This document shows, piece by piece, positions 3,627 to 39,667 of a stretch of 39,667 bases of DNA. The translations under genes were made by a program, and so were the position numbers. Origin of the DNA: Bdellovibrionia bacterium (GTDB lineage Bacteria; Bdellovibrionota; UBA1018); assembly GCA_045805065.1 (NCBI GenBank), contig JBJMMA010000193.1, positions 1-39,667 of the forward strand, in the 5' to 3' direction. The notes under the pieces are model-generated. The model searched no databases and was not told where the DNA came from. It saw nothing but the letters and a program-made list of their open reading frames with translations. Within the stretch, counting starts at the first letter, position 1. Each line of letters starts with the position of its first letter.

Positions 3627-3635
3627 ATAAAGTCA

Positions 3636-9433: not shown

Positions 9434-9439
9434 GAAATC

Positions 9440-9467
9440 CTATCGGAACGTCTTTTCACAAACTTAA
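9440..9467 (-). promoter_or_regulatory. sigma28 (FliA)-like promoter for motB-like gene
   Basis: TTAAGTTT-N12-TCCGATAG. Confidence 0.6.
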
Positions 9468-9470
9468 CAC

Positions 9471-9498
9471 TAAAGATCATAGGAATATTGGCCGATAG
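9471..9498 (+). promoter_or_regulatory. sigma28 (FliA)-like promoter
   Basis: TAAAGATC-N12-GCCGATAG. Confidence 0.75.
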
Positions 9499-9520
9499 GA
9501 GCCGTGGAGCTAGTGTGAAT

Positions 9521-15760: not shown

Positions 15761-15785
15761 GTAAACATCTCCCAAAAACTTGTTA

Positions 15786-23829: not shown

Positions 23830-23838
23830 GGGAGCACC

Positions 23839-25320
23839 TTGATCATGAAGGATCGAATTTGGCTGATTGATGATGATGAGCAACTCACTGACATCTTGTC
23901 ACTTACTTTGGAGACTCATGGCTATCTGGTCGAGGTTTCACGATCGTCAGGACAGGCTCTTGACCTGCTCCAGAAGCGCGAGCCAATCCAGGACTCCTCA
24001 GCCGTGCTATTGGATCTGCGCCTTGCGGATCAGGACGGCCTGACACTTCTGCCACGCATCCGGGAAGAGCTGCCAGAAGTCCCCGTCTTCATCATCACGG
24101 CTCACGGGGACGTTGACTCGGCAGTCGAGGCATTTACGCTTGGAGCAAGCGGCTATTTCAGAAAGCCATTTGAGGATGGAGAGCTCACGGAAAAGCTCAG
24201 ACAAGCCATTGATCAATATCGCCTGAAGCAAGAAGTTCAAGTTCTGCGATCGCGCTCCCTTGCCAACGAGAACCTGCCTCGGGTGAACGATCTGATTCCA
24301 TCACGTGACCCGGCGATGGGTCCGCTCTTGAAGAAAGTCGAGATGGCCGCAAACGTGATGAGCAACTGCGTGATTCATGGCGAGAGCGGCACCGGTAAAG
24401 AGCTCGTGGCACGTGCGCTTCATCGCTTGAGCCCGCGCCGAAACGGCCCTTTCATCGCGTTCAACTGTGCCGCACTTCCAGAGTCACTCATGGAAAGCGA
24501 GCTATTCGGACACGCCCGAGGCGCGTTCACGGACGCCAAGGAAGCCAAAGCAGGCTTATTCATGCGCGCCAACGGCGGCACCCTGTTCCTGGACGAGATT
24601 GGCGATGCCCCGCTATCCATTCAAGCCAAGCTTCTCCGCGTGCTGCAGGAAAAAGAAATTCTTCCACTGGGAGCCACCACTCCGGTCAAAGTTGACGTCC
24701 GTGTCGTTGCGGCAACCCATAAATGTCTCAAAACTGAAGTCGAGCAGAAACGGTTCAGGCTTGATCTGTACTACCGGCTTCATGTCCTGCGACTTGAAAT
24801 TCCGGCGCTTCGCGAGCGCCCCCGGGACATCATCTTTCTGGGCTCCTTCTTTGCCGAAAAGCTTGCACGCGAGATGAACCTCATGTTCCGGGGTTTTACG
24901 GGTGCAGCACAAACGGAAATGGAACGATATGCCTGGCCCGGAAATGTACGCGAGCTTCAGAACCGAATCGAGCAGGCCATGGCATTGGGTGGCGGTGGAA
25001 TCATTCCGTCGCGCAACCTTTTCCCTGAAAGAGAAGCGCCTGATGCAGGTGATGAGGACATGGAAACTCTTTTCGAGGACAACAAAGAGCTGCCTCGCGA
25101 TGAAGCCCCCCTGCCTTCCTATCAAGAAGCCAAGAGCGACTTTGAGAAAAACTATCTGGAACGAGTGCTCCATGCAGCCAAAGGAAACATCGCCAAGGCA
25201 GCGCGCATGGCCTCAAAGTCTCGGACCGAGGTCTACGGGCTACTCAGAAAGCATGGACTGAATCCGCTGGTTTTCAAGAATTCAGACGCTGAGGAAATGA
25301 GTTCAAACAGGGAGGCTTAA
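23839..25320 (+). CDS. sigma54-dependent NtrC-family response regulator (GlrR-like)
   Basis: REC domain, GESGTGKE, ESELFGHARGAFTDA, WPGNVREL, Fis-type HTH. Confidence 0.93.
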   Translation: MIMKDRIWLIDDDEQLTDILSLTLETHGYLVEVSRSSGQALDLLQKREPIQDSSAVLLDLRLADQDGLTLLPRIREELPEVPVFIITAHGDVDSAVEAFTLGASGYFRKPFEDGELTEKLRQAIDQYRLKQEVQVLRSRSLANENLPRVNDLIPSRDPAMGPLLKKVEMAANVMSNCVIHGESGTGKELVARALHRLSPRRNGPFIAFNCAALPESLMESELFGHARGAFTDAKEAKAGLFMRANGGTLFLDEIGDAPLSIQAKLLRVLQEKEILPLGATTPVKVDVRVVAATHKCLKTEVEQKRFRLDLYYRLHVLRLEIPALRERPRDIIFLGSFFAEKLAREMNLMFRGFTGAAQTEMERYAWPGNVRELQNRIEQAMALGGGGIIPSRNLFPEREAPDAGDEDMETLFEDNKELPRDEAPLPSYQEAKSDFEKNYLERVLHAAKGNIAKAARMASKSRTEVYGLLRKHGLNPLVFKNSDAEEMSSNREA

Positions 25321-25327
25321 CCGCCCC

Positions 25328-25432
25328 CTTCTTCTCGACATTCAAGGTGGAGGAGAGAATCTTGGATGTCGAGAGGAAGAGTTCAGGCGTTCTTCACGCG
25401 CTTTTGGGGCGCCGTGGTCGCACCCCAAAAGC
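25328..25432. terminator. Two hairpins between convergent genes (terminator/stabiliser-like)
   Basis: 21-bp stem 25328-25379 with three G-U pairs on + strand; GCTTTTGGGG/CCCCAAAAGC stem 25400-25432 that pairs better on - strand; no clear U-tracts. Confidence 0.5.
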
Positions 25433-25500
25433 CAGAGAAGACTTTTAAAGACTGTGTGTGGGTTGTGGAAAAAATCGAATCAGGTTTTTTGAGTTACGTA

Positions 25501-25689
25501 CTAGCAAACTCCGACGGCAGGTAGCCACTCCGAGAACCGAAACAGTTCTTCATCCGCTTTGCAGGTTCGGCAGAACCGGTCGTACTTCGATGAGGCACGA
25601 AACATCTTGTGGCAGAGATTGCAACGAAGATGGTCTGCGCCCACTTTTCTCTCACGCTTCTTTTCGGTCAGGAACATTTTCAGTTTCAT
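25501..25689 (-). CDS. 62-aa CxxC-x13-CxxC zinc-ribbon microprotein
   Basis: AAAGGAG RBS 7 nt before ATG; CNLC...CRTC; own promoter. Confidence 0.78.
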   Translation of the reverse strand: MKLKMFLTEKKRERKVGADHLRCNLCHKMFRASSKYDRFCRTCKADEELFRFSEWLPAVGVC

Positions 25690-25734
25690 CGGGATACTCC
25701 TTTCTAAAGTCATCGTCGGTATGGAGCTATCTAA

Positions 25735-25751
25735 AGCAACGACCGTACCAA
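25735..25751 (-). promoter_or_regulatory. sigma54 -24/-12 promoter
   Basis: TTGGTACGGTCGTTGCT (GG-N10-GC). Confidence 0.85.
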
Positions 25752-25809
25752 CTCAGACCCGTCGCGTAATCAAATTGAAGCGACACTGAGAAAATCCCGG
25801 ATGGAAAAA

Positions 25810-25870
25810 TGTACTAAGTTCCGTACACGTGCGGATATCAACTGTGTACTGCTGTACCAAGCTCAGTACA
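25810..25870. promoter_or_regulatory. Two enhancer (UAS) palindromes TGTAC-N8-GTACA
   Basis: TGTACTAAGTTCCGTACA (25810-25827) and TGTACCAAGCTCAGTACA (25853-25870). Confidence 0.75.
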
Positions 25871-25893
25871 AAGCGCTGAAGCCGGGTGGAAAT

Positions 25894-26523
25894 TCAGATC
25901 CAGTCGTAGTTGAAACTGATGCTGACCCGATCCACGCTTGCGCGATTGGCGGGAACTTCATGCTTGAGCCAGCTCTCAAAAAGCAGAATCTCGCCGGGCT
26001 TGCAGAGGAGATTGATGTATCGCTGATTCTCTTCCCGGGCTGAAGCTTTTCTGGGCGGCGATCCCATAAAGCAGGTGATGCGAGGATCCTCGATCTTGAA
26101 AGTTCCGGAGTCTTTTGGAACCTTCACATAGTAAGTCCCGCTGATTGCTGACAATGGATGCAAGTGAAAGCTGTGGTGCGCGTTCGTGCCCATGATGTTG
26201 ATCCAGAACGAGGAGATCGCGAGACGCTTCCCTTGAAGATCCATTTCCAGATGCTTGGCAAAGGACATCACTTCCTTGTCGATTGCCTGCTTGAGCGCTT
26301 CAAAACCGCTCGAGCGCTCATGGAGGTTCGCGATCGACGAGTAGGAGGTATAGCCTGCGACATAATTTTTCTTGGACCAGCGTCTTCCGGCATCGTCCAT
26401 CTCGCGAAACGCATAACACTCCCTCAGCAGGGAATCATTGAACGCATCGACCGATTTGTTCCGCCCAGGGGGTTTGAGGTTTGCGCGCCAAACGGAGGTT
26501 GGGAAGAGCTTCTGAATTGCCAT
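25894..26523 (-). CDS. TIGR02466-family putative 2OG-Fe(II) oxygenase
   Basis: LFPT start, GYTSY, HSFHLH, SGTYYV, FESWLKHEV, RVSISFN. Confidence 0.85.
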   Translation of the reverse strand: MAIQKLFPTSVWRANLKPPGRNKSVDAFNDSLLRECYAFREMDDAGRRWSKKNYVAGYTSYSSIANLHERSSGFEALKQAIDKEVMSFAKHLEMDLQGKRLAISSFWINIMGTNAHHSFHLHPLSAISGTYYVKVPKDSGTFKIEDPRITCFMGSPPRKASAREENQRYINLLCKPGEILLFESWLKHEVPANRASVDRVSISFNYDWI

Positions 26524-26680
26524 AATAGCCTTGCTTGTACCGGGCAAGATCTCGAAATTCAACAAGCACTCTTTATACGTCTGCCTACTCTCTGGACACT
26601 TTGAGAGCCAGAGAACCTTGCAACTTGTTGAATTCACAAGGCAGTTTAGTGGTATCTACCTTGCTTTATCACGTCATCAG

Positions 26681-27679
26681 ATGAAAAAAGTCGCAATCTT
26701 ATCCAATCCAAACTGTGGAAAAGGCCTAGGCCCACGCGCTATCCAGCAAGCGCGCCGCGCGCTTTGGGGATGGCCACTTGAGATCCTGACTCCATCATCT
26801 CTTCTCGAGCTTCAGCAAACGCTATCTAGTCTCAGTTCAAAAGAATACGAAGCCCTGATCGTCGTGGGTGGTGACGGCACTTTCAACCAGGCCCTGAAAG
26901 CCATGAGAGCGACAAGCGAGCGGCATATCCCGCTCTATCCATTTCCGGCGGGTACCGCGAACGATCTTGCGACTGAACTCAAACTTCGTCCGGACTGGGA
27001 CCAGGTGCAGACCTTATTAGATGAACAGCAGATCGAGAGAATCGATTGCATCACTGTCAACGACGCTCCTTTTTCCACGATCGCGGGAATCGGCGCAGGA
27101 TCTCAGCTGACTTCAGAGTTTAACTCCCGCAGAAGCAGCTCCCCGTTCTTCAAGCTCCTCAATCAGCACCTGCACAACCACATCTACAGCATTCTGAGCG
27201 CAAAGACCCTGCTCTTCGGCAACGACTACTTTCACCGGCTTCATATCCGAGGCGAAGGTTTTGATGAAAAGCTCAAGACACCGGTTGTCTTCATCTGCAA
27301 TCAGCCACGCTTGGGGGCCAAGCTCACCGTGGCACCTGATGCCAAGAACAATGATGGACGCTTCCATGTCATGATCGTTCCGCGCATCCGGAAGCATCGC
27401 CTGATCACAGGGCTCATTGCCCTTCAACGCGGGTACGTACCTCAGGATTTCCTACTATTCTCGACTGATCGCCTGGTCATCCGAGATCTCGATGGCCGCG
27501 ACATTCCGGTTTTCGGGGACGGCGAGACACTGGTCTCCGCGCCCGAGCTTCGCTTTGCCACTCATGCGCTCAGCCTGCCAGTCTACAGCGGCAGACTCAT
27601 GAGGCAGCATATTTCAAAAGGACTCACTGAGAAGTCCTCTAAAATCCGTGTCGAGATTCCCGAGGAGGCTCTCGTATGA
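26681..27679 (+). CDS. Diacylglycerol/lipid kinase family (YegS/DgkB-like)
   Basis: NPNCG, VGGDGT, PAGTANDLA, GDGE. Confidence 0.88.
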   Translation: MKKVAILSNPNCGKGLGPRAIQQARRALWGWPLEILTPSSLLELQQTLSSLSSKEYEALIVVGGDGTFNQALKAMRATSERHIPLYPFPAGTANDLATELKLRPDWDQVQTLLDEQQIERIDCITVNDAPFSTIAGIGAGSQLTSEFNSRRSSSPFFKLLNQHLHNHIYSILSAKTLLFGNDYFHRLHIRGEGFDEKLKTPVVFICNQPRLGAKLTVAPDAKNNDGRFHVMIVPRIRKHRLITGLIALQRGYVPQDFLLFSTDRLVIRDLDGRDIPVFGDGETLVSAPELRFATHALSLPVYSGRLMRQHISKGLTEKSSKIRVEIPEEALV

Positions 27680-28689
27680 AACTCCTTTTGACGGGCGCTA
27701 CCGGATTTTTAGGAAAGCAGCTGCTTGAGCTTCTTCTTGCCGATTCCAGGATCACTCACATCTGGGTGACCACCCGGAACAAGCGCTCGCACCCAAATCC
27801 AAAAGTCGAAGTGATCCGGATCAACCTTGCAGACCCAAGCCAGCTCTTTCAGCTGGATATTCTGCCTGACGCGGTCATTCATCTCGCAGGACTCTACGAT
27901 TTCGAGGAAAGTTACGAGAACTGCTACACACAGAACCTGCTTCCAGCGCTCCATCTCGCCCGCAAGGCGCGGGAATGGAATCAATCCAAGCGGGTACCCA
28001 TCTATTTTGCATCGACCTATGCAGTCACGTACGGACAAGATCTGTCCGCCGCGGAAGAGCCTCTGACAGCGCTTCCTCCGCCGAACATCCCCTATGCTTA
28101 CACAAAGGCGATGGCGGAACGAGCGATCACCGACTCCGGAGTTCCCAGCGCGATTTTCCGACTCGGCATTCTGGTCGGAAAATCCACTGACGGAGCCATG
28201 GATAAGCTGGATGGAGCCTATGCTTTCGTGCGCCTGATGGAAGCATCGCGCCCTCTTACAAAATTCTTAAAAAGAATTCCATTGCCGGCCAAGGCGGATG
28301 GAATTCTTCCCCTTGTACCCGTCGATGCAGCGGCGAGGATTTTCCATGAGGCGATCTTTCGCCCGGAGGTTGCATTCACCCCTGCTCAAATTTATGGTGC
28401 ATACGATCCTCGAAGTATTCCTATCCGCGAATTCGCCGAATCAGTTCTCGCCAAATACGCCCCCGGCGCAAGCCCGGTATTTTTTGAACGGATCCCAAAG
28501 TCTGTGTTGGACTTTCAAAGCCGCTTGACTCCGGTTTCTGCTGATGCATTCAAATTCGCACTGAAGCCTGTCGCGATTCAGAACCCAAGATTTCAAAAAG
28601 TCTTTTTGAACTCATTGATTCCACACTTCAAATCCTATGAACATGCATTTTATTCGGGCTACCGCATGATTACGAGAGGGTTACCATGA
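27676..28689 (+). CDS. Extended SDR (fatty acyl/thioester reductase-like)
   Basis: TGATGFLG, HLAGLYD, YAYTK. Confidence 0.82.
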   Translation: MKLLLTGATGFLGKQLLELLLADSRITHIWVTTRNKRSHPNPKVEVIRINLADPSQLFQLDILPDAVIHLAGLYDFEESYENCYTQNLLPALHLARKAREWNQSKRVPIYFASTYAVTYGQDLSAAEEPLTALPPPNIPYAYTKAMAERAITDSGVPSAIFRLGILVGKSTDGAMDKLDGAYAFVRLMEASRPLTKFLKRIPLPAKADGILPLVPVDAAARIFHEAIFRPEVAFTPAQIYGAYDPRSIPIREFAESVLAKYAPGASPVFFERIPKSVLDFQSRLTPVSADAFKFALKPVAIQNPRFQKVFLNSLIPHFKSYEHAFYSGYRMITRGLP

Positions 28690-30812
28690 GCATCCCGCGC
28701 GAAAGAAAAATCGTGCTTCTCAATCTTCTCAATCACGATGTCGTCAAAGAGCGCACGGTTGAGCTTGGAGGCATCCGCTTTTCCATCGTCGAGCACGACG
28801 TCGGCTGGAATATCCCTACAGTCCAGGCCCTGATCAGAAAATATGACGGTTTTGCGGACGGAATTGCCATCAGTGGCGTTCAAAAGCGCATCATTGCTGG
28901 CAAGAACACTTTCATGCACCCAGTCTCACTGAGCTTGATGCGTACGGCAGTAAAGACTCCGATTTATCTTGCCGACTACTGCCGCGAACTTTTCGCAGAA
29001 TGGACTATTCAAAAGCTTCTTAAGGAACAACCGCAGTTCTTCCACAGCAAGACCGTCCTCTTCCATTGCGCAGCCGCAAGCTCGCTTTTGCCCCGCATCG
29101 CCGGAGTTGCCGGAAAGGTCCGCGCTGCCGACCCGATGTTGCTTCCCGGAATCCCGGTCACTTTGAAAACTCTCAGGCAGATTGAGGCTTACGCCTGGAC
29201 AGCGAAAACAGCAGGTCGATTCCTGGTTGAAAACAAGATCAACCCGAAAATTCGCCACCGTACGGATCGACTTCATCATTGCCTGGTTGAAGCCATCAAA
29301 AACGCTGACATCTTTGTCACGTTCTCAAACCTCATTGAGAAGATTCCTGATCTGTCGGCGCTTAAAGGAAAGACTGTCATTATCGACTTTCTGACGGATG
29401 AGGTTCGCGCTCGCCTCGAAGCCGCAGACCCGGCGCAGGTCGTTGTCTTTACGCCAGACGTTCCACAGTTTGATGAGATCCCCTTCAGGCATTACTCAGT
29501 GTTTTCCGCTCTGATTGACCAGATCCGCATCGCCCAGGACAGCCCGCTTCCTTTTGATGAGTTCTTGTTACGCTGGATTCAAGAATTCAATGTCAAGCCA
29601 CGATCCTTCAAGCACACCAAGGGAATGGTCAGGCGTTGCGCATTTGTGGTTCATCCACTCAACACCTCCCAGCTCTGGGAAAACGCAAAACTTCCCTTCA
29701 TGCTGGATGCACCCAGAAGGATTCAAAAACTTGGCGAGGCGGCCGCAGCCCGGCTTCCAGCATTCCAATATGGAAAGATCGAAGGCATCGTCAGCGAAGC
29801 CACTGGCCAGGAAGTAATTTGCGATCTCTATGCGATTCCCGCAACACCCAAGCAGCTTCTCTCCATGAACGAAGAGTTTGTTTACAGCCGAATGGTTCAG
29901 GCGGCAGAGCTGGCGCGTAAGAATGGCGCAAGCATGATCGGCCTCGGTGCTTACACCAAGGTTGTAGGCGATGCAGGCGTGACGATTTCCCGCCGCGCCT
30001 CGATCCCCGTGACGAACGGAAACTCTTACTCTGCATCCGCAACGCTCTGGGCAGCTCGCGAGATGCTGGAGCGAATGGGCTTGGTCAGAACCGTCGATGG
30101 CAAGCGCGCGCGTGCAAAGGCCATGATTGTCGGAGCCACGGGAAGCATCGGCCGGGTTTCCGCATTACTAGTCTCTCTTGTCGTGGATGAGCTCGTACTG
30201 GTTGCAACAAGACCCGACAAGCTTCTTGAGCTGCGCCAGGAAGTCCTGGACCTCTCACCAGGTGTCCGCGTCCATGTCACGACAAATCCTGATCCTGACC
30301 TTCCAGACACGGATCTCATTGTCACGGCAACATCCAATCAAAGCGGAAAGATCCTGGATATCATGCAAGTCAAGCCAGGTGCCGTGATCTGTGATTGCTC
30401 TCGCCCACTCGATATCGGAGCCGATGAGGCGGCGAAGCGTCCAGATGTTCTCGTCATTGAGAGTGGAGAGATTAATCTCCCCGGAAATCTTAAATTCGCC
30501 GGGAGCATCGGTCTTCCCTATCCATCGGTCTACGCATGCCTCGCCGAGACCGTGCTGCTGACCATGGAAGGACGCTATGAACCCTTCTCACTCTCCAAGC
30601 ACCTCTCGCTTGAGAAGGTCAAAGAAATCTACCGCATCGGAATCAAGCATGGAGCGAAGCTTTCGGCAATCTGCGGCCCCAATGGTCCTATCACAGATGC
30701 AGATATCGAAGACTGCCGCGCCCTTGCGCTTGAGCGCCTGAGGACTTGGACTCCAAGGAGCCCCGGGCTGAAAACTGAACTTCTGAAAGAGGCTGAGGAA
30801 CTCTCCGTATGA
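28686..30812 (+). CDS. Acyl-ACP/CoA reductase-like protein with large N-terminal extension
   Basis: GLGAYT, VTNGNS, VGATGSIG, YACLAE (compare cyanobacterial AAR FACFAE catalytic Cys). Confidence 0.7.
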   Translation: MSIPRERKIVLLNLLNHDVVKERTVELGGIRFSIVEHDVGWNIPTVQALIRKYDGFADGIAISGVQKRIIAGKNTFMHPVSLSLMRTAVKTPIYLADYCRELFAEWTIQKLLKEQPQFFHSKTVLFHCAAASSLLPRIAGVAGKVRAADPMLLPGIPVTLKTLRQIEAYAWTAKTAGRFLVENKINPKIRHRTDRLHHCLVEAIKNADIFVTFSNLIEKIPDLSALKGKTVIIDFLTDEVRARLEAADPAQVVVFTPDVPQFDEIPFRHYSVFSALIDQIRIAQDSPLPFDEFLLRWIQEFNVKPRSFKHTKGMVRRCAFVVHPLNTSQLWENAKLPFMLDAPRRIQKLGEAAAARLPAFQYGKIEGIVSEATGQEVICDLYAIPATPKQLLSMNEEFVYSRMVQAAELARKNGASMIGLGAYTKVVGDAGVTISRRASIPVTNGNSYSASATLWAAREMLERMGLVRTVDGKRARAKAMIVGATGSIGRVSALLVSLVVDELVLVATRPDKLLELRQEVLDLSPGVRVHVTTNPDPDLPDTDLIVTATSNQSGKILDIMQVKPGAVICDCSRPLDIGADEAAKRPDVLVIESGEINLPGNLKFAGSIGLPYPSVYACLAETVLLTMEGRYEPFSLSKHLSLEKVKEIYRIGIKHGAKLSAICGPNGPITDADIEDCRALALERLRTWTPRSPGLKTELLKEAEELSV

Positions 30813-31900
30813 GCCAAGCTTACTTCACTCGAGCCTTGAATTACACATTGGCGAACGAAGATACGGCCATGGAACTTGCCATGCTGCAAGAGGGTCTGGG
30901 CCATATTCTGTCGGTTGCGGGAAGCGGCGGACGTGTTCTTCCGCTTCTCTCCAAAAAACCAAAGAGACTGACCTGCGTTGACGTCTCTCAGGAACAACTC
31001 TATCTCACTGAGCTTCGTATCGAGTCCGCTCGAGCTCTCACGCATGCGGAGTTTCTCGCATTCTGGGGCTACCCTCCGCGCAGCGCAACTCCCGGTGAAC
31101 GCAAGGACCTTTACTCAAAGATCAAGCTCTCCAAGGAAGCCGACACTTTCATTTCAGGACTTTTTAGCTCTCAAACCTGGCAAAGCGTCCTTTATCTTGG
31201 AAAGTGGGAGCGCACTTTCAGCACGCTCTCCCAAGTCAATCAACGCATGACGGGACTTGCGGGACGCAAGCTTTTTGAATGCCTGACCCTGGATGAGCAG
31301 AAAGCTTATCTCAAGAAGGAATTTCCAAAGACCGCGTGGTCCGCCGTTATTTTCCTTCTGGGAAATGCAGGGATCTTCAACGCCCTCCTTTATAAGGGAC
31401 ACTTTCCAAAAAAGAATATCCCCGATTCGTTCTACGGATTCTATTCAAAAACATTTGAGCGCCTTTTTCATCAAGCTCCAGCCCGGGAAAGCTATTTTCT
31501 TCAGCTTCTCTTCTTTGGCAAAGTTGTCTTTGTTGAAGGATGCCCGGTTGAATGTAAGCCAGAAGTTTTTCAGGCCGCAAAAGAAGGTCTCTCCGGGACT
31601 GAGATTCGCTACGAACGCGGCGACCTACTCGAGCAGATCAAAGGAGTCGATCAACCGATCGATTTTCTGTCTTTCTCAGACGTGCCCTCCTACTTTACGG
31701 GAGAGACTGAGCGCGCCTTTATGCAGATCGCCCGTCCAAAGCTCTCTTCAGGTGCGCTGACCGTCAACCGCAATTATCTGCACATCCCTGAAGATACCGA
31801 TATAAAGGGATTCAAAAGCGCGACACATGAGTTTCAAGCTGCCATCGACGCAGAAAAAGTCGGAGTCTACGTCGTTGATGTGCAACGGAAGGTCGAATAA
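30809..31900 (+). CDS. BtaA/DUF3419-family SAM-dependent 3-amino-3-carboxypropyl transferase-like protein
   Basis: LNYTLANED, SVAGSG, VDVSQEQ, SFSDVPSY. Confidence 0.8.
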   Translation: MSQAYFTRALNYTLANEDTAMELAMLQEGLGHILSVAGSGGRVLPLLSKKPKRLTCVDVSQEQLYLTELRIESARALTHAEFLAFWGYPPRSATPGERKDLYSKIKLSKEADTFISGLFSSQTWQSVLYLGKWERTFSTLSQVNQRMTGLAGRKLFECLTLDEQKAYLKKEFPKTAWSAVIFLLGNAGIFNALLYKGHFPKKNIPDSFYGFYSKTFERLFHQAPARESYFLQLLFFGKVVFVEGCPVECKPEVFQAAKEGLSGTEIRYERGDLLEQIKGVDQPIDFLSFSDVPSYFTGETERAFMQIARPKLSSGALTVNRNYLHIPEDTDIKGFKSATHEFQAAIDAEKVGVYVVDVQRKVE

Positions 31901-31909
31901 CGGTGTCCG

Positions 31910-32656
31910 ATGAGAACACTCCTGGTCACCTCACAAATCACTTACGTTCCAAGAAACTATCAGGCGCTTTTTGAAGGCGTTCTCAAGAGCGCCTCTTCGC
32001 ATATTGCAGGACTGGTCGTGCTTGAGAACCTTTCCTGGAGACTCTCAAAGGACATTCTGGGCCTCAAGCTTATGGGGTGCTCTGAGATTTCCAGGCATCT
32101 TTTCAAGAACGTCATGGAAGCTCGCAAAAGAGAGCGCGAGCGTCTTTTTGAGTCCAAAGGCCTTCCTGTTATCCGGACCCAAACGATGAACTCGCCCGAG
32201 ATCATTGAGTACGTCAAAAGCAAAAGAATCGATTTGATCGTCAACGCTCGTACGCGTTGCATCTACAAGAAACCGATCCTGGAGGCGCCTCGCCTGGGCT
32301 GCATCAACATCCATCATGGACTCCTGCCTGAGTACCGTGGAACCCTTTGCGACCTCTATGCGCTTTTTGAAGGCCGCCCTGCTGGATTTACAATCCATCA
32401 GATGAACGAGAAAATCGACGCAGGCAAAATCCTGAAGCGCATTGAAGTCTCGGGTCACGGTGAGAAAGACTTTGCGGCTTATCTCGAAAAAGCTTCCCTC
32501 ATTGAAGGTCAGGTACTCGGCGAGCTCCTCAATGACATCGCAGCCCAGGACTCTCTTCCTGCTGGGATTGAGAATCGTAGCGAAAAGTCCGTTTACACCC
32601 GGAATCCAAACCGCAAGCAGATCGCAAAAATGAAAGAGGAAGGGCTCGTACTATGA
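31910..32656 (+). CDS. N10-formyl-THF-dependent formyltransferase
   Basis: INIHHGLLPEYRG, IDAG (catalytic Asn/His/Asp). Confidence 0.85.
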   Translation: MRTLLVTSQITYVPRNYQALFEGVLKSASSHIAGLVVLENLSWRLSKDILGLKLMGCSEISRHLFKNVMEARKRERERLFESKGLPVIRTQTMNSPEIIEYVKSKRIDLIVNARTRCIYKKPILEAPRLGCINIHHGLLPEYRGTLCDLYALFEGRPAGFTIHQMNEKIDAGKILKRIEVSGHGEKDFAAYLEKASLIEGQVLGELLNDIAAQDSLPAGIENRSEKSVYTRNPNRKQIAKMKEEGLVL

Positions 32657-33357
32657 TTTTAGCATTTCATGGATGCCCTGGACTGCCTGAGGACTTTGAC
32701 CTTCTTGCTCAAGAGCTGAAACGGTCCTCATCTCAAGTCTTGCTCAAGGCGATTGCAAGAAAGGGTTATCCTGGATCCCAAAGCTTAGCGAGCTCGCTCC
32801 CCCCAAGCTCTTTATACTTAGGCTACTCTTTTGGCTGCGCGGACGCAGTCGAAGCGGCTTCACTTGATCCTCAAACAAAAGGCATCATCCTGATCGCTCC
32901 CTATCTTTATCCTACCAAGGAAGCAGGAGCAGGAATGAAGGTGCTTTTAGCTATTCCAGGATTAAGCGACCTTCTTCTGTCTCTTCTTGGAAAGAAGGCG
33001 ACGAAAGAATTTGTCGTAAAAACCGCTCATCCCAATCAAGCTCCGGACACGTACGTTAAAACGGGCGAGCGATACGCAAAGCCTGCCATCCTGAAACGCG
33101 CGATGACTGAAACGAGCGGACGGGGCCCAGGCATCACCGCAGCCCTTGAAACCTTGAAAAAGAGAAACGTCCCTGTGCTTCTGGTTTGGGGAAAACAAGA
33201 TCAGGTCTGTCCTGAGAGCTCTCAGTTTGAGCCTTTACGAGAACTCTTTCCACATGTTCGCGAGAGATCGCTCGATCAGGCGGGACACGCTCTTTTGTGG
33301 ACGCACCCAGAGATTCTTTCAAAAGAAATCATTCAATTTTCCCAGGCACTCGCCTGA
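32653..33357 (+). CDS. Alpha/beta hydrolase
   Basis: HGCPG, GYSFG, GKQD, AGH. Confidence 0.85.
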   Translation: MILAFHGCPGLPEDFDLLAQELKRSSSQVLLKAIARKGYPGSQSLASSLPPSSLYLGYSFGCADAVEAASLDPQTKGIILIAPYLYPTKEAGAGMKVLLAIPGLSDLLLSLLGKKATKEFVVKTAHPNQAPDTYVKTGERYAKPAILKRAMTETSGRGPGITAALETLKKRNVPVLLVWGKQDQVCPESSQFEPLRELFPHVRERSLDQAGHALLWTHPEILSKEIIQFSQALA

Positions 33358-33379
33358 TCCATTTTAACGGAGGAACGAT

Positions 33380-35119
33380 ATGAAAACCCAAGCCCAGCCT
33401 CGCGCAGGTTACTATCCAGGTGCTCACCGCGGAAACAACGTTCATACGTTTCTGGAACATCATCTGGCAAAAGACCCAAACCTGGTCGTCCTTCAATGGG
33501 TTAACCCGCAAGCTCTGAAAGAGTTTGCGGCAAACGGTTTTAGCGGTCCGCTCAAGCATGATTCAGCCACAGTAGGACAGCTGCATGACCATATCGGCAG
33601 AGTCGCCGCGGGGTTCCAAAAGCTTGGAATCGGAATGGGCGATCGCGTAATTGTTTTCATGCCGATGTCGCTCTATCTTTACGTTGCGATGTTCGCGCTT
33701 CAAAAGATCGGTGCGATTGCCGTTTTCTTGGATTCTTGGGCACGACGCAATCATCTCGGAGCAAGCGCTCAGATCGTTGCACCTAAAGGAATGGTTAGCT
33801 TTGAAAAAGCATTTGAGCTTTGCAGCCAAGTTCCGGAACTTGATTCGGTCCCATTGAAGATTTCTGTAGGTCCTACCACGCGGAAATACGCTGCTCGTCT
33901 GGAAGAGCTTTTTCAGTTCCCAGCTTTTGCCGAAAGTGTTCCTGTCGAGCAAGAACATACGGCTCTGATTACCTTCACTACCGGAAGCTCGGGTACACCC
34001 AAGGGCGCAAATCGCACTCATCGCTTCTTAGCGGCGCAGCACTATGCACTGGATGAGTGCATTCCCTACACCACCTCAGATGCTGACCTTCCGGTCTTCC
34101 CGATTTTCTCACTCAATAACCTGGCTGCAGGCGTAAGCACCATCATTCCTGCCTTTGACATCGGCGTTCCAGGCGATCATGATCCAGAAATTCTTCTGGC
34201 TCAGCTTGAAGCATGTCATGTCACCTGCACGACCCTGTCCCCTTCACTCTTCAATCGCCTGTCCGCTCACTGCTTACAGAAAGGCATCACGCTCTCAGGG
34301 CTTCGCCGAGTCGTCACGGGCGGAGCTCCCGTGAGCCGCGATAATGTGGTGGACATGCAAAAGGTCGCACCGAACGCCGACATCTGGATTCTCTTCGGAT
34401 CGACCGAGGCTGAGCCCATGGCTCATATCGAGGGGCGCGAAATGGTCAATCAAAAGACCCGCGCTGCCGAAGACCCTGAGTGGGTGGATGAAGGTGTGAA
34501 CGTCGGTCACATGGCAGAGGGCCTCTATTACAAGTTCATCAAGATCCAGAAAGGACCTGTTGAGGTCAATCAGGCTTCCGATTGGGCATCGCTCGAAGTA
34601 TCTGCAGGAGAAGTTGGCGAACTGATCGTTGCGGGCGAGCACGTTTGCCGAAATTACTATAACGACGACGTCGCATTCAAACGCGCCAAGATCATGGACG
34701 AGAACGGAACGGTCTGGCACCGCACAGGTGACTTAGGACGACTCGACTCTGAAGGAAACCTCTGGATTGTGGGTCGCGTTCACAATGCGATCAATCGTGG
34801 CGGAAAGTACTGTTTTCCGGTTCGAGCCGAGCTGATCATGAAGAAGCTGCCTTACACTCAATACGCAGCTTACCTGGGCGTTTCTGACGAGAAACTTGGA
34901 GAAAAAACCGTCGCAGTGATTGTTCCACAGGACAAATCTGTTCTGGGCACCGCTACAGAGTCTGAGATGAAGCAGGAATTACTCCGAATCATGGACAAGA
35001 ACGGTGTCCCGGTCGATCAGGTCCTATTCCGTGAAAAGATCCCGATGGACCCTCGCCATCATAGCAAAGTCGAGTACGATGTATTGAGAACGGACCTCAT
35101 GGCAGAGGGGCTTGTTTAA
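33380..35119 (+). CDS. AMP-dependent ligase (OleC-like)
   Basis: FTTGSSGTPKG, FGSTE, HRTGD, PMDPRHHSKV; GGAGG RBS. Confidence 0.88.
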   Translation: MKTQAQPRAGYYPGAHRGNNVHTFLEHHLAKDPNLVVLQWVNPQALKEFAANGFSGPLKHDSATVGQLHDHIGRVAAGFQKLGIGMGDRVIVFMPMSLYLYVAMFALQKIGAIAVFLDSWARRNHLGASAQIVAPKGMVSFEKAFELCSQVPELDSVPLKISVGPTTRKYAARLEELFQFPAFAESVPVEQEHTALITFTTGSSGTPKGANRTHRFLAAQHYALDECIPYTTSDADLPVFPIFSLNNLAAGVSTIIPAFDIGVPGDHDPEILLAQLEACHVTCTTLSPSLFNRLSAHCLQKGITLSGLRRVVTGGAPVSRDNVVDMQKVAPNADIWILFGSTEAEPMAHIEGREMVNQKTRAAEDPEWVDEGVNVGHMAEGLYYKFIKIQKGPVEVNQASDWASLEVSAGEVGELIVAGEHVCRNYYNDDVAFKRAKIMDENGTVWHRTGDLGRLDSEGNLWIVGRVHNAINRGGKYCFPVRAELIMKKLPYTQYAAYLGVSDEKLGEKTVAVIVPQDKSVLGTATESEMKQELLRIMDKNGVPVDQVLFREKIPMDPRHHSKVEYDVLRTDLMAEGLV

Positions 35120-36013
35120 GTGCAAACCCAGGCTTTGGCAAAATCGCCTCGCAAGTGGCTCCAGTTCACCAAGGAGCGGTTTGATCCAGCATCGCATCTG
35201 GTGATGATCCTCCTTTTTGTGATTGCCCACCGACTCCTCTTTCCAGGACATACAACCCCACTGGCAGTCCTGGCGGTATTTCTGGGAACCGTCGCCTTTT
35301 TCTTCAAGCTTCGTCTTTATGACGAAATCAAAGACTATGAGCTCGATCTTGTTATCAACCCGACTCGTCCTCTGGCACGAGGCCTGATGACACATAGCGA
35401 TCTCTATAAGGGAATCGCCTTTTGCATCGTCCTGGAACTTGCTTTGTTTGGCCTTCAAGGCCCTGCCGCTTTGGCTGCTATTGCGATCGCAATCACCTAC
35501 TCGCTTCTGATGTACAAAGAGTTTTTCATCCGAGACCTGATCCGTCCGCATCTGACGACTTACGCTGTCAGCCATACTGTTGTCTCAGCCCTTCTCTCGC
35601 TTGCGCTCATCTCGGCGTTTATCCATCGCTATCCTTGGCAGCTCAGTCGTGAGGCTCAGCTTTTCGCCCTGAATAGCTGGTGCCTCTTCAATATCTTCGA
35701 GTTTGGACGAAAGACTTTCACTTCATCTGAAGAACGCGATGGTGTTGAGTCTTATTCAAAGATCTTTGGTCGCTCTGGCGCCGTAGGATTGGTTGTGAGC
35801 ATGGCGCTGGCATCGGCTTACTGCCTGATCCGAGTTCGATACAGCGCAACCCTTCAGACCTTCATCATCGTAGCTTGCGCCGCCCTGATCGGAGTCGGAG
35901 CGATCTACGCCTTCATGAACCGCCCGCCCTACGGAAAGGTCTACCGCGCGTTCTCATCCATTTACATTGTCATTATTTACCTTGGGATCGTTGGAATCCG
36001 CCAACTTTCTTAA
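35120..36013 (+). CDS. UbiA prenyltransferase-family membrane protein
   Basis: RLYDEIKDYELD...RPLARG; about 8-9 TMs. Confidence 0.8.
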   Translation: MQTQALAKSPRKWLQFTKERFDPASHLVMILLFVIAHRLLFPGHTTPLAVLAVFLGTVAFFFKLRLYDEIKDYELDLVINPTRPLARGLMTHSDLYKGIAFCIVLELALFGLQGPAALAAIAIAITYSLLMYKEFFIRDLIRPHLTTYAVSHTVVSALLSLALISAFIHRYPWQLSREAQLFALNSWCLFNIFEFGRKTFTSSEERDGVESYSKIFGRSGAVGLVVSMALASAYCLIRVRYSATLQTFIIVACAALIGVGAIYAFMNRPPYGKVYRAFSSIYIVIIYLGIVGIRQLS

Positions 36014-36029
36014 TCGGGGAGCTGAATTT

Positions 36030-38744
36030 ATGTTGATCACCCAAAACAGTACTGAAACTTACGCCAAGCGCGAAGCCGGAGGAAAAGGCTTTAACCTTTA
36101 TCTCCTCTCCAGACAGAACCTTCCGGTTCCTCAATGGATCGTTCTGGGAGCAAGCCTTTTTCGCTCCTATCGCGCAGCCACAGGCCTTGAGCAAAAAATC
36201 GCGGACACGGTCAATCAAGCAAAAACCCAGGATCTTGCTCTGATTGCGTTCAAGGTCCGTGAGATGATTCTTGCGACTCCCTTTCCCAAGGAAGTCGAGC
36301 AAAAAGCCCGTGAAGCCTACCGCGCGCTCGCCAAACCTTTAATCGCCGTTCGCTCTTCGGCCGCAGACGAAGACTCGGCACAGCACTCCTTTGCGGGACA
36401 ACTCTCCACGTTTCTTTACGTAAGAAGCGAAGAGGAAGCGCTCCGTTGCCTGAAAGAGTGCTGGGCATCCGGCTATTCCGAGCGTGGCCTCTCCTATCGC
36501 ATCCAGAACGATATGGATCTCTCTGTCCCTATCCAGGTTGCAGTGATTTTCCAAGAAATGGTCGACAGTGAAAAGAGCGGCGTTCTTTTTACCTGCGATC
36601 CGATCAAAAAAGACGGAACTCGCACCACTATCAACTCGGTCTATGGCGTGGGCGAAGGTCTGGTCTCAGGTCTGCTGGATGCCGACACTTATCTGATTGA
36701 AAAGAAATCTGGCTCCATTGTCTCTCAAGAGCTTGTCAGTAAGAAATCCAAGCTCGTCATGAACATCCAGGCGCCTGAGGCTCACACTCAAGCCGCCGAG
36801 CCAGAGAACACGCACGAGGTACCTGTCGAGACGTCCCTTCAAGATGGCGCTTCACTCACTGAACAGGAATTGAAAACGCTGAACGAACTCGGCGCCAAAG
36901 TCGAAAAGTACTACCGCTTTCCGCAAGACATTGAATGGGGCATGAAAGATGGAAAGCTCTATCTTCTTCAATCCCGCCCGGTCACTACGCCAATCAAGAA
37001 TGAAGAAGGCCTTCTTTACATCTGGGATAACTCGAACATCGTGGAAAGCTATGGCGGCTTGACGCTTCCCCTCACTTTCACTTTTGCCCGCAATGCCTAT
37101 CACTGGGTGTATGTTCAGTTCTGCGAAATCCTTTTGATCCCTCAAAAGGACATCCGCAAGATGGATTACTTCCTGAGAAACATGCTGGGCATGTTCTATG
37201 GACGTGTCTTTTACAACATCCTGAACTGGTACAAGCTCACCTCGATTCTTCCGGGCTTCAAATACAATCGATCCTTCATGGAAACCATGATGGGAACGCA
37301 GCATAGCCTGCAAGATGAAATCGCAGACCGGATCAAGCCTCCAGGCTTTACCGAGACCCTTTCATCGAAGGTCATGCGAACCATCAGCGGACTGAAGTTC
37401 CTTTGGTTCCACTTCACGATTCAATCCATGGTCGATAACTTCTTGGAGTATTTCCATACTGAGTATTCCAAGTATCGTCACATCGAGTACTCCAAGATGC
37501 CCGCAGATGAGATCTGGGCGCTCTATCAAGAAGTCGAGCAAAAGATGCTCATGCGCTGGCATGCTCCGATTGTGAACGACTACCTCTGTATGGTTCACTT
37601 CGGGCTTCTCAAAAAGCTCACCAGCAAATGGCTCAGTCACCTGGGCGATGGCCTGCAAAACGATCTTCTTTGTGGCGAAGGGAAACTTGAGTCCGCAGAA
37701 CCCACGCGTGAGCTGATCCGCATGGCGGCCATGATCTCAAAAGAGCCGGCGCTCAAAACCCTGATCGAATCGACTCCTGCCGAAGACTGCATGGAAGCTC
37801 TCCAGCAATCCTCCCATAAGGAGTTCAAGACACGCGTTGCTCGCTACATCGATCTCTATGGCTTCAGGTGCATGAATGAAATGAAGCTTGAAGAGAAGGA
37901 TCTCTATCAAGATCCATCCTTCCTTTTTGTCTGCCTGAAGAACTATCTGCGGTCCGGCCAAACGGATCTCGAAGGCTATGAGAAGCGCGAAAAAGAAATC
38001 CGTGCGGCTGCCGAAAAGAAAGTTCGCGAGAACTTGGGTGGCTTGAAACTCATGGTCTACAAATGGTCTCTCAAGAACGCTCGCCTGGCCGTGAAGAACC
38101 GCGAGAATACTCGCTTCTGCCGCACCCGGATTTATGGTGTCGCAAGAGCCATGTTTCATGGCATCGGAAAAGACTTCACCGCTCGCGGCATCATCGATGC
38201 TCCGGAAGATATTTTCTATCTTCAAATCGATGAGCTTGCTGGTGCATTGGAAGGCCATTTGACCGTCCAGGAACCAAAACTTCTCGTGGAGCTTCGCAAG
38301 AAGCAATACGAGGGGTACGCTGCAACTGAGCCTGCCTCTCGCTTCATGACTCGTGGACCAGTCTACTGGATGAACGAGCACACCGAGCCTGAACAAGAAG
38401 CGGAAGAAGACACCCACCTTCCTCCGAACACGATGAAGGGCGTCGGTTGCTGCCCTGGCGTGATCGAAGGCACAGTGAAAGTGATTCTATCACCCAAGGA
38501 TAATCTGGAGCTCAATGGCGAGATCTTGGTCACCTTGAGAACCGATCCGGGTTGGATCCCGCTCTATCCTTCAGCTTCTGCGCTTTTGGTGGAGCGTGGC
38601 GGACTGCTTTCTCACTCAGCCATCGTGGCGCGCGAGATGGGTCTTCCGACGATTGTGAGCCTCAAGGGCCTCACTCAGAAGCTCAAGTCCGGAATGCGTG
38701 TCCGCATCAATGGTGAAACCGGAATCGTTACGATCTTGGAATAA
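36030..38744 (+). CDS. PEP-utilising dikinase with rifampin-phosphotransferase-like architecture
   Basis: GGKG, VRSSAADED..HSFAGQ, QDIEW, LQSRP; central substrate domain; C-terminal GGLLSHSAIVARE phospho-His domain. Confidence 0.88.
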   Translation: MLITQNSTETYAKREAGGKGFNLYLLSRQNLPVPQWIVLGASLFRSYRAATGLEQKIADTVNQAKTQDLALIAFKVREMILATPFPKEVEQKAREAYRALAKPLIAVRSSAADEDSAQHSFAGQLSTFLYVRSEEEALRCLKECWASGYSERGLSYRIQNDMDLSVPIQVAVIFQEMVDSEKSGVLFTCDPIKKDGTRTTINSVYGVGEGLVSGLLDADTYLIEKKSGSIVSQELVSKKSKLVMNIQAPEAHTQAAEPENTHEVPVETSLQDGASLTEQELKTLNELGAKVEKYYRFPQDIEWGMKDGKLYLLQSRPVTTPIKNEEGLLYIWDNSNIVESYGGLTLPLTFTFARNAYHWVYVQFCEILLIPQKDIRKMDYFLRNMLGMFYGRVFYNILNWYKLTSILPGFKYNRSFMETMMGTQHSLQDEIADRIKPPGFTETLSSKVMRTISGLKFLWFHFTIQSMVDNFLEYFHTEYSKYRHIEYSKMPADEIWALYQEVEQKMLMRWHAPIVNDYLCMVHFGLLKKLTSKWLSHLGDGLQNDLLCGEGKLESAEPTRELIRMAAMISKEPALKTLIESTPAEDCMEALQQSSHKEFKTRVARYIDLYGFRCMNEMKLEEKDLYQDPSFLFVCLKNYLRSGQTDLEGYEKREKEIRAAAEKKVRENLGGLKLMVYKWSLKNARLAVKNRENTRFCRTRIYGVARAMFHGIGKDFTARGIIDAPEDIFYLQIDELAGALEGHLTVQEPKLLVELRKKQYEGYAATEPASRFMTRGPVYWMNEHTEPEQEAEEDTHLPPNTMKGVGCCPGVIEGTVKVILSPKDNLELNGEILVTLRTDPGWIPLYPSASALLVERGGLLSHSAIVAREMGLPTIVSLKGLTQKLKSGMRVRINGETGIVTILE

Positions 38745-38788
38745 AAAAAGCCGGAAGAGCCCAAGAGATCTTCCGGCTTTTTATTTTT
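38745..38788. terminator. Bidirectional intrinsic terminator
   Basis: AAAAAGCCGGAAGA/TCTTCCGGCTTTTT stem with T/A tracts between convergent genes. Confidence 0.9.
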
Positions 38789-38823
38789 GACGCGCTCCTC
38801 TACCAATTGGAGCCGGATACCTT

Positions 38824-39667
38824 TTATCCGCGCAAGCGGGCAATACGCTCCTCCAGCGGAGGATGCGATGAGAAGAGCTGCAAGAAGGACTTGCCTCCCG
38901 AGATCTTCATTGCCTGAATGGCAGGCTGAGCAGTGGTGTCGTTGAGCTCGTAGGCACGGCGCAAGGCTTCGAGAGCCTGGACCATGTTCTCACGGCCCGC
39001 AAGGCGCGCACCGCCTGCGTCCGCACGGTACTCACGATAACGGGAGAACCAGGCGACAACCATCGAGCCGAGGATCATGAAGATGATCTCAAGCACGAAC
39101 TGCGTGATGTAGAAAATCGGATACGAGAAGTCGTTGCCGCGACGATCATCGCGATCGCCACGAAGAGCGGTTGCCGCAGCAAACGCAAGAACGCGAGCCA
39201 GGAACATGACAAACGCGTTCACAACGCCTTGAAGAAGGGTCATCGTCACCATATCGCCGTTTGCGATGTGGGTGACTTCGTGTCCAAGAACACCTTCCAC
39301 TTCGGCCGTGCTCATACGATTGAGAAGCCCTGTCGAAACCGCAACGAGTGCACGAGACTTGGTCGGGCCGGTCGCAAAAGCGTTGAGCTCAGGAGATTGA
39401 TAAATTCCGACTTCCGGCATGGCAGGAAGATGAGCGGCACGTGCCAGGTTATGAACCATCTGCACGAGTTGTTGAAGATCCGGATCGCGAGTGTTCGGGT
39501 CAACGACCTGAACTCCCATCATCCACTTGGCCATGACACGAGAGAGCGCCAGAGAAATCAGCGCGCCACCCATACCCCAGACCAGGCAGAAGGCCATGAG
39601 CTGGCTGTAGTCGATTCCGTACGCGGTAATGTACCCGTGAATTCCCAGGACATTGAGGATGATCGAA
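38824..39667 (-). CDS. htpX: Zinc metalloprotease HtpX (5'-partial)
   Basis: NAFATG, HEVTH, NGDMVTMTLLQG, SRYREYRAD, SSHPPLEERI; frame open to the window edge. Confidence 0.93.
   Translation of the reverse strand, partial: SIILNVLGIHGYITAYGIDYSQLMAFCLVWGMGGALISLALSRVMAKWMMGVQVVDPNTRDPDLQQLVQMVHNLARAAHLPAMPEVGIYQSPELNAFATGPTKSRALVAVSTGLLNRMSTAEVEGVLGHEVTHIANGDMVTMTLLQGVVNAFVMFLARVLAFAAATALRGDRDDRRGNDFSYPIFYITQFVLEIIFMILGSMVVAWFSRYREYRADAGGARLAGRENMVQALEALRRAYELNDTTAQPAIQAMKISGGKSFLQLFSSHPPLEERIARLRG

Follow-up and report, generated by a model that had tools for sequence, protein, structure and literature searches.

A conserved, modular, and apparently undescribed lipid-type operon in Bdellovibrionota

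The DNA analyzed here is a contig of 39,667 nucleotides from a Bdellovibrionia bacterium (contig JBJMMA010000193.1, assembly GCA_045805065.1). The window, as we call this whole stretch, is one complete contig of an assembly of 4.2 Mb with a completeness of 94%. According to the open reading frame (ORF) listing and inspection of the sequence at both ends, nine plus-strand genes, termed g1 to g9, occupy positions 26681–38744 (Table 1), and we consider it on balance probable that they form one operon for an uncharacterized fatty-acyl-derived envelope lipid. By ORF coordinates, g1/g2, g2/g3, g3/g4, and g5/g6 overlap by 4 nt each, g7 and g8 abut, and gaps of 9, 22, and 16 nt separate g4/g5, g6/g7, and g8/g9, respectively, the last value presuming that g9 starts at ATG 36030 and not at TTG 35967. 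The g9 ORF opens with TTG 35967, the alignment to its NCBIfam model begins at residue 21, and M22 is encoded by ATG 36030, making the latter the likely start codon; for g1, the start at ATG 26681 coincides with the beginning of the Pfam domain. An initial annotation, made from the sequence alone, had described nine co-oriented and tightly coupled genes, and the overlaps, the abutting junction, and the gaps all proved to be exactly as given there. The same is true of the single terminator at the operon end, a hairpin followed by a U-run, the stability of which was reached by 0 of 200 shuffled sequences. This hairpin was not listed by a consensus terminator scan because its loop comprises 10 nt; the convergent M48 peptidase gene can make use of it, too. 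The nine-gene operon is thereby confirmed as real.

Table 1. Genes and other features of the operon, and fused variants found at other loci (window coordinates unless a locus is named)
Feature	Position	Strand	Length	Characteristics
Possible sigma-54 type -24/-12 element (tentative)	26650..26665	+		TGGTAT-N5-TTGCT; 15 nt before g1 start
g1, soluble DAGK/YegS-family lipid kinase	26681..27679	+	332 aa	Pfam DAGK_cat 64.7 bits, YegS_C 39.9 bits
g2, extended SDR, fatty-acyl/thioester-reductase type	27676..28689	+	337 aa	NAD_binding_4 86.2 bits, Epimerase 68.5 bits
g3, protein with two AAR-like folds	28686..30812	+	708 aa	C-half: PigE N-domain 4ppm E 2e-36, AAR 6jzq E 7e-16
g4, DUF3419 (BtaA-family) SAM-dependent transferase	30809..31900	+	363 aa	PF11899 109.1 bits, cut-off 28.2, residues 3-309
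g5, formyltransferase catalytic domain protein	31910..32656	+	248 aa	Formyl_trans_N 63.9 bits
g6, small alpha/beta hydrolase	32653..33357	+	234 aa	Abhydrolase_1 37.5 bits; GYSFG with S59
g7, ANL-superfamily adenylate-forming ligase	33380..35119	+	579 aa	AMP-binding 147.7 bits
g8, divergent UbiA-superfamily membrane transferase	35120..36013	+	297 aa	UbiA 33.3 bits, cut-off 34.2
g9, swivelling-histidine dikinase, Rph/PigC/RedH type	36030..38744	+		PPDK_N 249.1 bits, PEP-utilizers 75.5 bits
Intrinsic terminator	38745..38788	+		14-bp hairpin, then U-run; folding free energy (dG) -21.1 kcal/mol, z = -5.0
HMG-CoA-reductase-family/kinase fusion	L087:5009-7354	-		also in L100, L101, L102, L103; FcrA or HMGR type both possible
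ANL ligase (Pfam 15-353) fused to UbiA-like domain (507-745)	L099:9965-12292	-	775 aa	Silvanigrellales-type genome

All nine enzyme families named in the initial annotation were reproduced with Pfam and NCBIfam. The first four genes, referred to as module A, encode a lipid kinase, a short-chain dehydrogenase/reductase (SDR), a double reductase resembling acyl-acyl carrier protein reductase (AAR), and a BtaA-like enzyme. The domains DAGK_cat and YegS_C together with a GGDG loop at residues 63–66 assign g1 to the DAGK/YegS family, its scores with the NCBIfam lipid-kinase equivalog models all lying under the cut-offs. In g2, TGATGFLG matches the pattern TGxxGxxG and YAYTK at residues 150–154 the pattern YxxxK (motifs were read from the translations). 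Pfam detected no domain anywhere in g3, and NCBIfam was likewise blank for its N-terminal half. For the C-terminal half, Foldseek ranked the carmabin TAD and AAR top; this half contains a nucleotide loop, GATGSIG, at residues 483–489, and residue C618, invariant in 17/17 sequences, aligns with AAR Cys294, the position altered in PDB entry 6jzz according to its title (AAR-C294S). The C-terminal half is thus a likely catalytic acyl-thioester reductase. As g3 reached 60 bits with the AAR model TIGR04058 (cut-off 449.7), it does not qualify as an AAR equivalog, and Pfam revealed no gene for an enzyme like aldehyde-deformylating oxygenase (ADO) in the cluster. The N-terminal half lacks a nucleotide-binding loop. 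Modeled alone (pLDDT 84), it matched AAR with Z 11.6 and TAD with Z 10.4 in a VIA search, a modest lead given that unrelated two-lobed binding proteins scored Z 9.5 or less; Foldseek returned generic two-lobed folds with TM values of just 0.3–0.5, and protein-atlas features gave 0.83–0.84, under the level that counts. This model suggests that g3 consists of two AAR-like units in tandem, only one of them catalytic. Stand-alone proteins of about 315–325 aa resembling only the N-terminal half of g3 (24–26% identity over g3 residues 23–307) are encoded at G025:C52:25030-25854 and G119:C1:1757061-1757900 in two other genomes, and the atlas contains free-standing proteins of about 300 aa with the fold of this half, labeled 'quinate 5-dehydrogenase'. 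For g4, a member of PF11899, NCBIfam returned zero matches and the solved structures zero relatives at E 0.1; its orthologue in Bdellovibrio bacteriovorus scores 220 bits with PF11899. A BtaB-type methyltransferase is not among the nine genes, the remainder of the genome not having been searched for BtaB.

Module B consists of an N-capping enzyme, an ANL ligase, a UbiA-like enzyme, and an Rph/PigC-like dikinase. With a Formyl_trans_N domain and the residues N132, H134, and D170, g5 belongs to the formyltransferase class; the positions of this Asn-His-Asp triad are presumed from the motif typical of the class and not from a structure alignment. Its scores with the Fmt and ArnA models (about 62–64 bits) are under the cut-offs. 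The hydrolase g6 groups with ORFs of only 7 other loci and is thus an optional cluster member. The nearest NCBIfam group of g7 is the uncharacterized PRK09274 (366 bits, cut-off 478), and its closest PDB entries are CoA ligases. The term 'OleC-like ligase' used in the initial annotation therefore holds as regards the ligase family, whereas the likeness to OleC itself is weak (216–226 bits against cut-offs of 850–900). The Ole pathway was considered and rejected, since OleA is missing and the scores are low. The dikinase g9 exceeds the cut-off of 883 of model NF004881 with 1088.9 bits, the model itself being uncharacterized and named 'phosphoenolpyruvate synthase', and it stays below the equivalog cut-offs for RedH (396 vs. 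1350 bits), PigC (372 vs. 1300), and Rph (332 vs. 999). It matches the Rph structures 5hv2/5fbs at E 5e-79, with H883 situated in the sequence LSHSAIVAR inside the PEP-utilizers domain. Its order of domains, PPDK_N, central, and swivelling-His, without a phosphoenolpyruvate (PEP)-binding domain, is that of Rph and PigC. We rejected an assignment as true PEP synthase (PpsA) because there is no match to PEP-utilizers_C (PF02896), a domain that the true PpsA of locus L050 does carry.

Though g8 itself falls just short of the UbiA cut-off, homologues reach 42.1 and 53.8 bits with this model. The g8 family retains the first motif, DExxDxxxD, without variation and has NxFExGRK in place of the DxxxD of the second. 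A family profile retrieved from the solved structures only archaeal digeranylgeranylglyceryl phosphate (DGGGP) synthase 6m31, at E 3.9e-5 over about 90 residues. These features could be taken to mean that g8 uses an ordinary polyprenyl diphosphate of central metabolism and prenylates an acceptor derived from a fatty alcohol or homoserine, with g9 and g1 phosphorylating elsewhere. Prenyl diphosphates are indeed the usual donors of the UbiA superfamily, the nearest solved relative is the archaeal DGGGP synthase, and the first Asp motif of g8 is intact. Yet the cluster holds neither a prenyl-diphosphate synthase nor any other isoprenoid gene, and the conserved reductase and kinase pair looks like a dedicated supply of activated alcohol, so that we regard an isoprenoid anchor as unlikely.

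To place the operon in a wider context, we considered one genome per GTDB species, which gave 482 encoding stretches, and kept the best 80 loci, compared by tblastn and ORF clustering. Locus counts refer to 81 sources (80 loci plus the window) and are lower bounds, as many loci are cut by contig ends. The loci stem from Bacteriovoracaceae, Halobacteriovoraceae, Bdellovibrio bacteriovorus, Oligoflexus tunisiensis, and Silvanigrellales-type metagenome-assembled genomes; the g3 family is large, and its named members all belong to Bdellovibrionota. Among module A genes, g3 was present in at least 79 sources, g1 in at least 63, g2 in at least 56, and g4 in at least 50; for module B, the figures were at least 34 (g9-like), 33 (g7-like), and 30 (g8-like). 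Across the 80 loci, the g1-g2-g3 block is nearly constant and usually includes g4, and the dikinase is invariably paired with the ANL ligase and the UbiA-like enzyme; this second block may be colinear with module A, divergent from it, or kilobases away, with linkage kept. In the operon of the window, two modules have been fused that other genomes keep apart or in divergent orientation. Strain Bd5 of B. bacteriovorus has the full set, with a g5 homologue adjoining g7-g8-g9.

The frequent separation of the modules raises the question whether two unrelated gene sets without a common pathway merely lie side by side here, an explanation to which one might also count the Silvanigrellales-type loci showing only g1-g3-g4 at the site. 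At the genome level, assessed in 121 genomes of the phylum (with kin not being independent), g3 was found in 24, g4 in 29, and g8-like genes in 31. All 24 genomes with g3 carry both g4 and a g8-like gene, against a background of about 25%, and this pattern extends over five families. Where module B is missing from the g1-g3-g4 locus, as in the Silvanigrellales-type genomes, a UbiA-like gene is located elsewhere in 5/5 cases, the modules have been re-joined in several different arrangements, and in the window the coupling spans the module boundary, with a gap of 9 nt between g4 and g5 and a single terminator. A mere side-by-side position of unrelated sets is thus highly improbable. Since the arrangement recurs in many genomes, it is not a product of chance. 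The initial annotation had named a lack of co-conservation in other genomes as a point that would refute it; the 24/24 co-occurrence and the recurring synteny show the genes to be co-conserved.

Variant loci are informative with respect to mechanism; three kinds of variation, in the reductase and kinase, in the ligase and UbiA-like enzyme, and in the capping enzyme, speak for a single pathway. Five of the 121 genomes encode a protein of about 780 aa in which an HMG-CoA-reductase-family domain and an APH/EcKL kinase are joined, and none of these five is among the 24 with g3. In 4/5, the gene for this fusion protein has an ANL, dikinase, UbiA-like, or DUF3419 gene as its neighbor, and in genomes G055 and G097 all four are present. 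FcrA has been described as a fatty acyl-CoA reductase related to HMG-CoA reductase (HMGR), and the passages searched in that article (PMC11948995) make no mention of kinase fusions or of the cluster. As the fusion takes the place of g1-g3, conversion of a thioester to an alcohol and then to a phosphate appears to be a conserved need that is served by unrelated proteins. In the pathway sketched in the initial annotation, the sequence 'reduce, then phosphorylate' is backed by this fusion beside the core genes in genomes devoid of g3. The sketch is plausible and in part supported by genome comparison; the order of steps, a diphosphate made jointly by the two kinases, an ether formed by the UbiA-like enzyme, and the acceptor are conjectural. 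Another fusion, that of the ligase with the UbiA-like domain in a Silvanigrellales-type genome (Table 1), is followed by genes for a dikinase, an ABC ATPase, and an FtsX permease, with an AurF-like oxygenase and a GNAT gene divergent; it would tie the ligase and UbiA-like steps closely together. In genome G092, which lacks g3, the region L086:15624-17368 encodes a membrane protein of the ceramidase family along with a g1-like kinase of 35% identity, adjoining g4-P450-ligase-UbiA-dikinase-GNAT genes. Synthesis of sphingolipids was rejected as an assignment, serine palmitoyltransferase not being in the cluster.

A further variation concerns the capping enzyme. The formyltransferase is present in 13 loci and the window and a GNAT protein in 22 loci, with no locus having both, and either type adjoins the ANL-UbiA-dikinase trio. 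Type I trios (g9 identity of at least 48%) are preceded by the formyltransferase, while type II trios (g9 identity 30–47%) are followed by a 340-aa GNAT-domain protein. This alternation fits the idea that the two are alternative caps for one amine, the source of which would be the BtaA-like enzyme. It would also be consistent with a capped variant of a betaine lipid built on diacylglycerol (DAG), where g4 is a true BtaA converting DAG to diacylglyceryl-homoserine, the formyltransferase or GNAT protein N-formylates or acetylates this product instead of its being methylated by BtaB, g1 serves as a DAG kinase keeping the DAG pool in balance, and the remaining genes add or remodel a chain. The membership of g4 and its B. 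bacteriovorus orthologue in the BtaA family argues for such a scheme, as does the fact that DAG is a known substrate of BtaA and of DAGK-family kinases. Even so, five or six always-linked genes (g2, g3, g7, g8, and g9) would be left without a role, the replacement of g1-g3 by the reductase-kinase fusion would go unexplained, and the operon has no BtaB-type methyltransferase; a DAG-based product strikes us as unlikely.

Returning to the fatty-acyl-derived envelope lipid, the product is most likely an undescribed membrane lipid that derives from a fatty alcohol and bears a capped amino-acid head group. Its synthesis may be envisaged as follows. The ANL ligase g7 would activate a fatty acid, and g3, by means of its conserved catalytic Cys, together with the SDR g2, which resembles fatty acyl-CoA reductases, would convert the acyl thioester via the aldehyde to a long-chain alcohol. 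The DAGK-family kinase g1 would phosphorylate this alcohol, whereupon the dikinase g9 might add a second phosphoryl group or else activate another oxygen. The UbiA-like g8, having kept the diphosphate-binding first Asp motif, could then couple the activated chain to an acceptor, probably yielding an ether. A 3-amino-3-carboxypropyl (homoserine) head group would be placed on the lipid by g4 at the expense of S-adenosylmethionine (SAM), and its free amine would be N-formylated by g5, or be modified by a GNAT acetyl/acyl transferase in sister clusters. For g6, the role of an optional helper hydrolase or acyltransferase seems conceivable, and the finished lipid would be exported.

What has been observed are the gene families, their tight coupling, their co-occurrence, and their modular rearrangement; from these, we infer the product, the acceptor, the order of steps, and every chemical step, which weighs against the scheme, as do several specific points. 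UbiA enzymes normally ionize allylic diphosphates or phosphoribosyl pyrophosphate and would be expected to use a saturated alkyl diphosphate poorly, and g8 has NxFExGRK in place of the second Asp motif. Judging by the ANL-UbiA fusion, the ligase may supply the UbiA-like enzyme without a detour, instead of supplying the reductase. Pfam identified no genes for handling glycerol, making the acceptor, or providing a carrier protein in the cluster. Moreover, g2 was not found beside g1-g3-g4 in the Silvanigrellales-type loci, and no reductase gene lies closer than 20 kb in the G092 variant. That g3 is confined to 24 of the 121 sampled genomes, or one fifth, marks the function as accessory and the product as no core membrane lipid, and MacB-type pumps export non-lipid products as well. 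Still more tentative is the specific proposal of a new route in which an alcohol derived from a fatty acid becomes an alkyl (or 2-alkenyl) diphosphate for a UbiA-type transfer, the product being an ether-linked, phosphorus-free N-formyl-homoserine lipid in the outer membrane of predatory bacteria; we consider this route possible, albeit somewhat doubtful.

Genes of the export type bear on the destination of the product. Among the 80 loci, adjacent genes encode a LolA-like protein in 27, an FtsX/MacB permease in 24, and an ABC ATPase in 20, and a DUF1302-like or other outer-membrane candidate lies near the cluster in 18, the positions of the export genes varying. None of the LolA-like, FtsX/MacB, or ABC ATPase genes occurs in the window itself, and the genome from which it stems carries the trio on another contig (C216:3575-6240, locus L089), with 59–65% identity to the cluster-linked counterparts, plus a second, more distant set on contig C245. 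From this neighborhood, the envelope, in particular the outer membrane, is probably where the product is destined. The MacB-type ABC genes adjoining many loci, together with the patchy distribution (24/121 genomes), would also fit a secreted specialized metabolite, for example a signaling compound or a fatty amine or enamine resembling an antibiotic. Following a logic like that of tambjamine or prodiginine synthesis, the ANL enzyme would activate the chain, a PigE/TamH-like reductase would deliver the aldehyde, a PigC/TamQ-like dikinase would activate a carbonyl for condensation, and MacB would export the product. In favor of this, g3 scores 155.6 bits with the PigE N-domain, and g9 has the above similarity to RedH and PigC. 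All these scores are nonetheless far under the cut-offs of 850–1350; Pfam and NCBIfam revealed neither an aminotransferase domain nor pyrrole or bipyrrole genes; a LolA-like carrier along with a DUF1302-like partner in the outer membrane speaks for lipid traffic within the envelope, and membrane-bound UbiA-like enzymes and BtaA-like enzymes are typical of lipid pathways. We thus deem a secreted metabolite of this type improbable. Synthesis of prodiginines or tambjamines proper was rejected, there being no pyrrole genes and no aminotransferase.

As to expression of the operon, a sigma-70 promoter scan was uninformative (8 sites vs. 7.8 expected), and since Rfam at the gathering threshold gave zero matches within positions 25000–39667, we conclude that no riboswitch or leader is present there. 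The possible sigma-54 type element listed in Table 1 also precedes g1 in the closer relatives L001, L006, L007, and L070; it was found in 5/62 loci (L078 included) compared with 2% of control windows. Within the window alone, the pattern has 3 matches vs. 1.8 expected and so is not above chance. Just upstream of g1 (22534–25320) lie genes for a histidine kinase and a sigma-54 activator of the NtrC type. Four public DNA sequencing runs, from one soil study, contain 16–27% of the sampled words of the window, and no RNA run is listed among the matching public runs.

Other genes of the contig are mentioned for completeness. Divergent from g1 lies a gene for a 2-oxoglutarate (2OG)-Fe(II) oxygenase (PF13759; 25894–26637, minus strand), which does not cluster with neighbors of the 80 loci and is probably outside the conserved set. 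About 6 kb upstream, a protein with an Lnb_N periplasmic domain is encoded (18556–20442, minus strand); Lnb_N proteins and a 455-aa hydrolase follow directly after g3 in the Bacteriovoracaceae loci L040, L043, L044, L052, L054, and L056. Further genes encode a radical-SAM protein, a LysR regulator, and a fatty-acid desaturase (1707–5313), an ankyrin-repeat protein of 821 aa (9266–11731), and a MoxR AAA ATPase with a transglutaminase-like membrane protein (11728–15775).

The initial annotation had stated that no characterized pathway with this combination of enzymes was known, and our full-text literature search yielded none either; a description of the cluster was not found in the full texts searched, subscription journals and supplements having been outside their scope. 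In sequence sources, the cluster proteins carry only automatic names. The operon is thus real, conserved, modular, and of lipid type, and apparently undescribed. If the proposed function is correct, a predatory phylum that includes B. bacteriovorus makes a class of envelope lipids never described before, with enzyme families not known to cooperate and with a UbiA-type transfer that may accept a non-isoprenoid chain. An Rph/PigC-like dikinase would then act in lipid synthesis, broadening the roles of UbiA and swivelling-His enzymes, and bacteria would gain a further way of making ether or amino-acid lipids. The widespread labels 'phosphoenolpyruvate synthase', '4-hydroxybenzoate polyprenyltransferase', and 'amino acid dehydrogenase' would then have to be corrected as misannotations. 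With the full gene set residing in the cultured and genetically tractable B. bacteriovorus, the question is directly testable.

Several known systems share parts with the cluster. OleABCD comes to mind because OleC provides the second-best NCBIfam matches of g7 and an SDR and an alpha/beta hydrolase are present too, but the OleA thiolase is missing, the OleC scores are as low as given above, and OleD reaches 27 bits against a cut-off of 580. AAR, the PigE N-terminal domain, and the carmabin TAD share with the C-terminal half of g3 the fold, the sequence family, the catalytic Cys, and the nucleotide loop, whereas g3 has an extra N-terminal fold and is accompanied neither by ADO or an aminotransferase domain nor by a polyketide synthase/nonribosomal peptide synthetase (PKS/NRPS) context. 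As regards FcrA (PMC11948995), the kinase-fused HMG-CoA-reductase-family domain that replaces g1-g3 in relatives would fit a conversion of acyl-CoA to alcohol and then to phosphate; such a fusion is not found in the window. Rph and PigC/RedH/TamQ have the ATP-grasp PPDK_N, the large central, and the swivelling His domain in common with g9, but the pairing of g9 with an ANL ligase and a UbiA-like enzyme is without precedent there. Enzymes of the Rph and PigC/RedH/TamQ type phosphorylate an oxygen of a hydrophobic small molecule.

With respect to the head group, the nearest system is the BtaA/BtaB pathway of diacylglyceryl-trimethylhomoserine (DGTS) synthesis in Rhodobacter sphaeroides and its algal counterpart BTA1, as g4 shares the DUF3419/BtaA family PF11899, which is tied to betaine-lipid synthesis in the literature. 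The chemistry expected to be shared is that a lipid hydroxyl receives the 3-amino-3-carboxypropyl moiety of SAM, the amine thus introduced being modified afterwards. Here, however, the partner is a formyltransferase or GNAT protein and not BtaB, and eight further genes have no counterpart in DGTS synthesis. In the salvage of phytol and other prenols, the kinase VTE5 and the phosphate kinase VTE6 supply UbiA-family transferases. The proposed pathway would resemble this salvage in that a long-chain alcohol is phosphorylated twice and the diphosphate passed to a transferase of the UbiA superfamily. The VTE5 and VTE6 kinases are unrelated to the DAGK-type kinase and swivelling-His dikinase of the cluster, whose alcohol would arise from acyl-thioester reductases and is probably non-isoprenoid. 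Finally, the ether-lipid-forming archaeal DGGGP synthase 6m31 shares the first Asp-rich diphosphate/Mg motif with g8, which differs from it in the second motif and in the limited length of the match. We know of no fusion of a DGGGP synthase to an ANL ligase, as seen for g8 relatives in one lineage. Should the tentative new route via an alkyl diphosphate operate, it would parallel archaeal ether-lipid synthesis with fatty acids as the starting material, carried out by an ANL ligase, a reductase, a kinase, a dikinase, and a UbiA-like enzyme.

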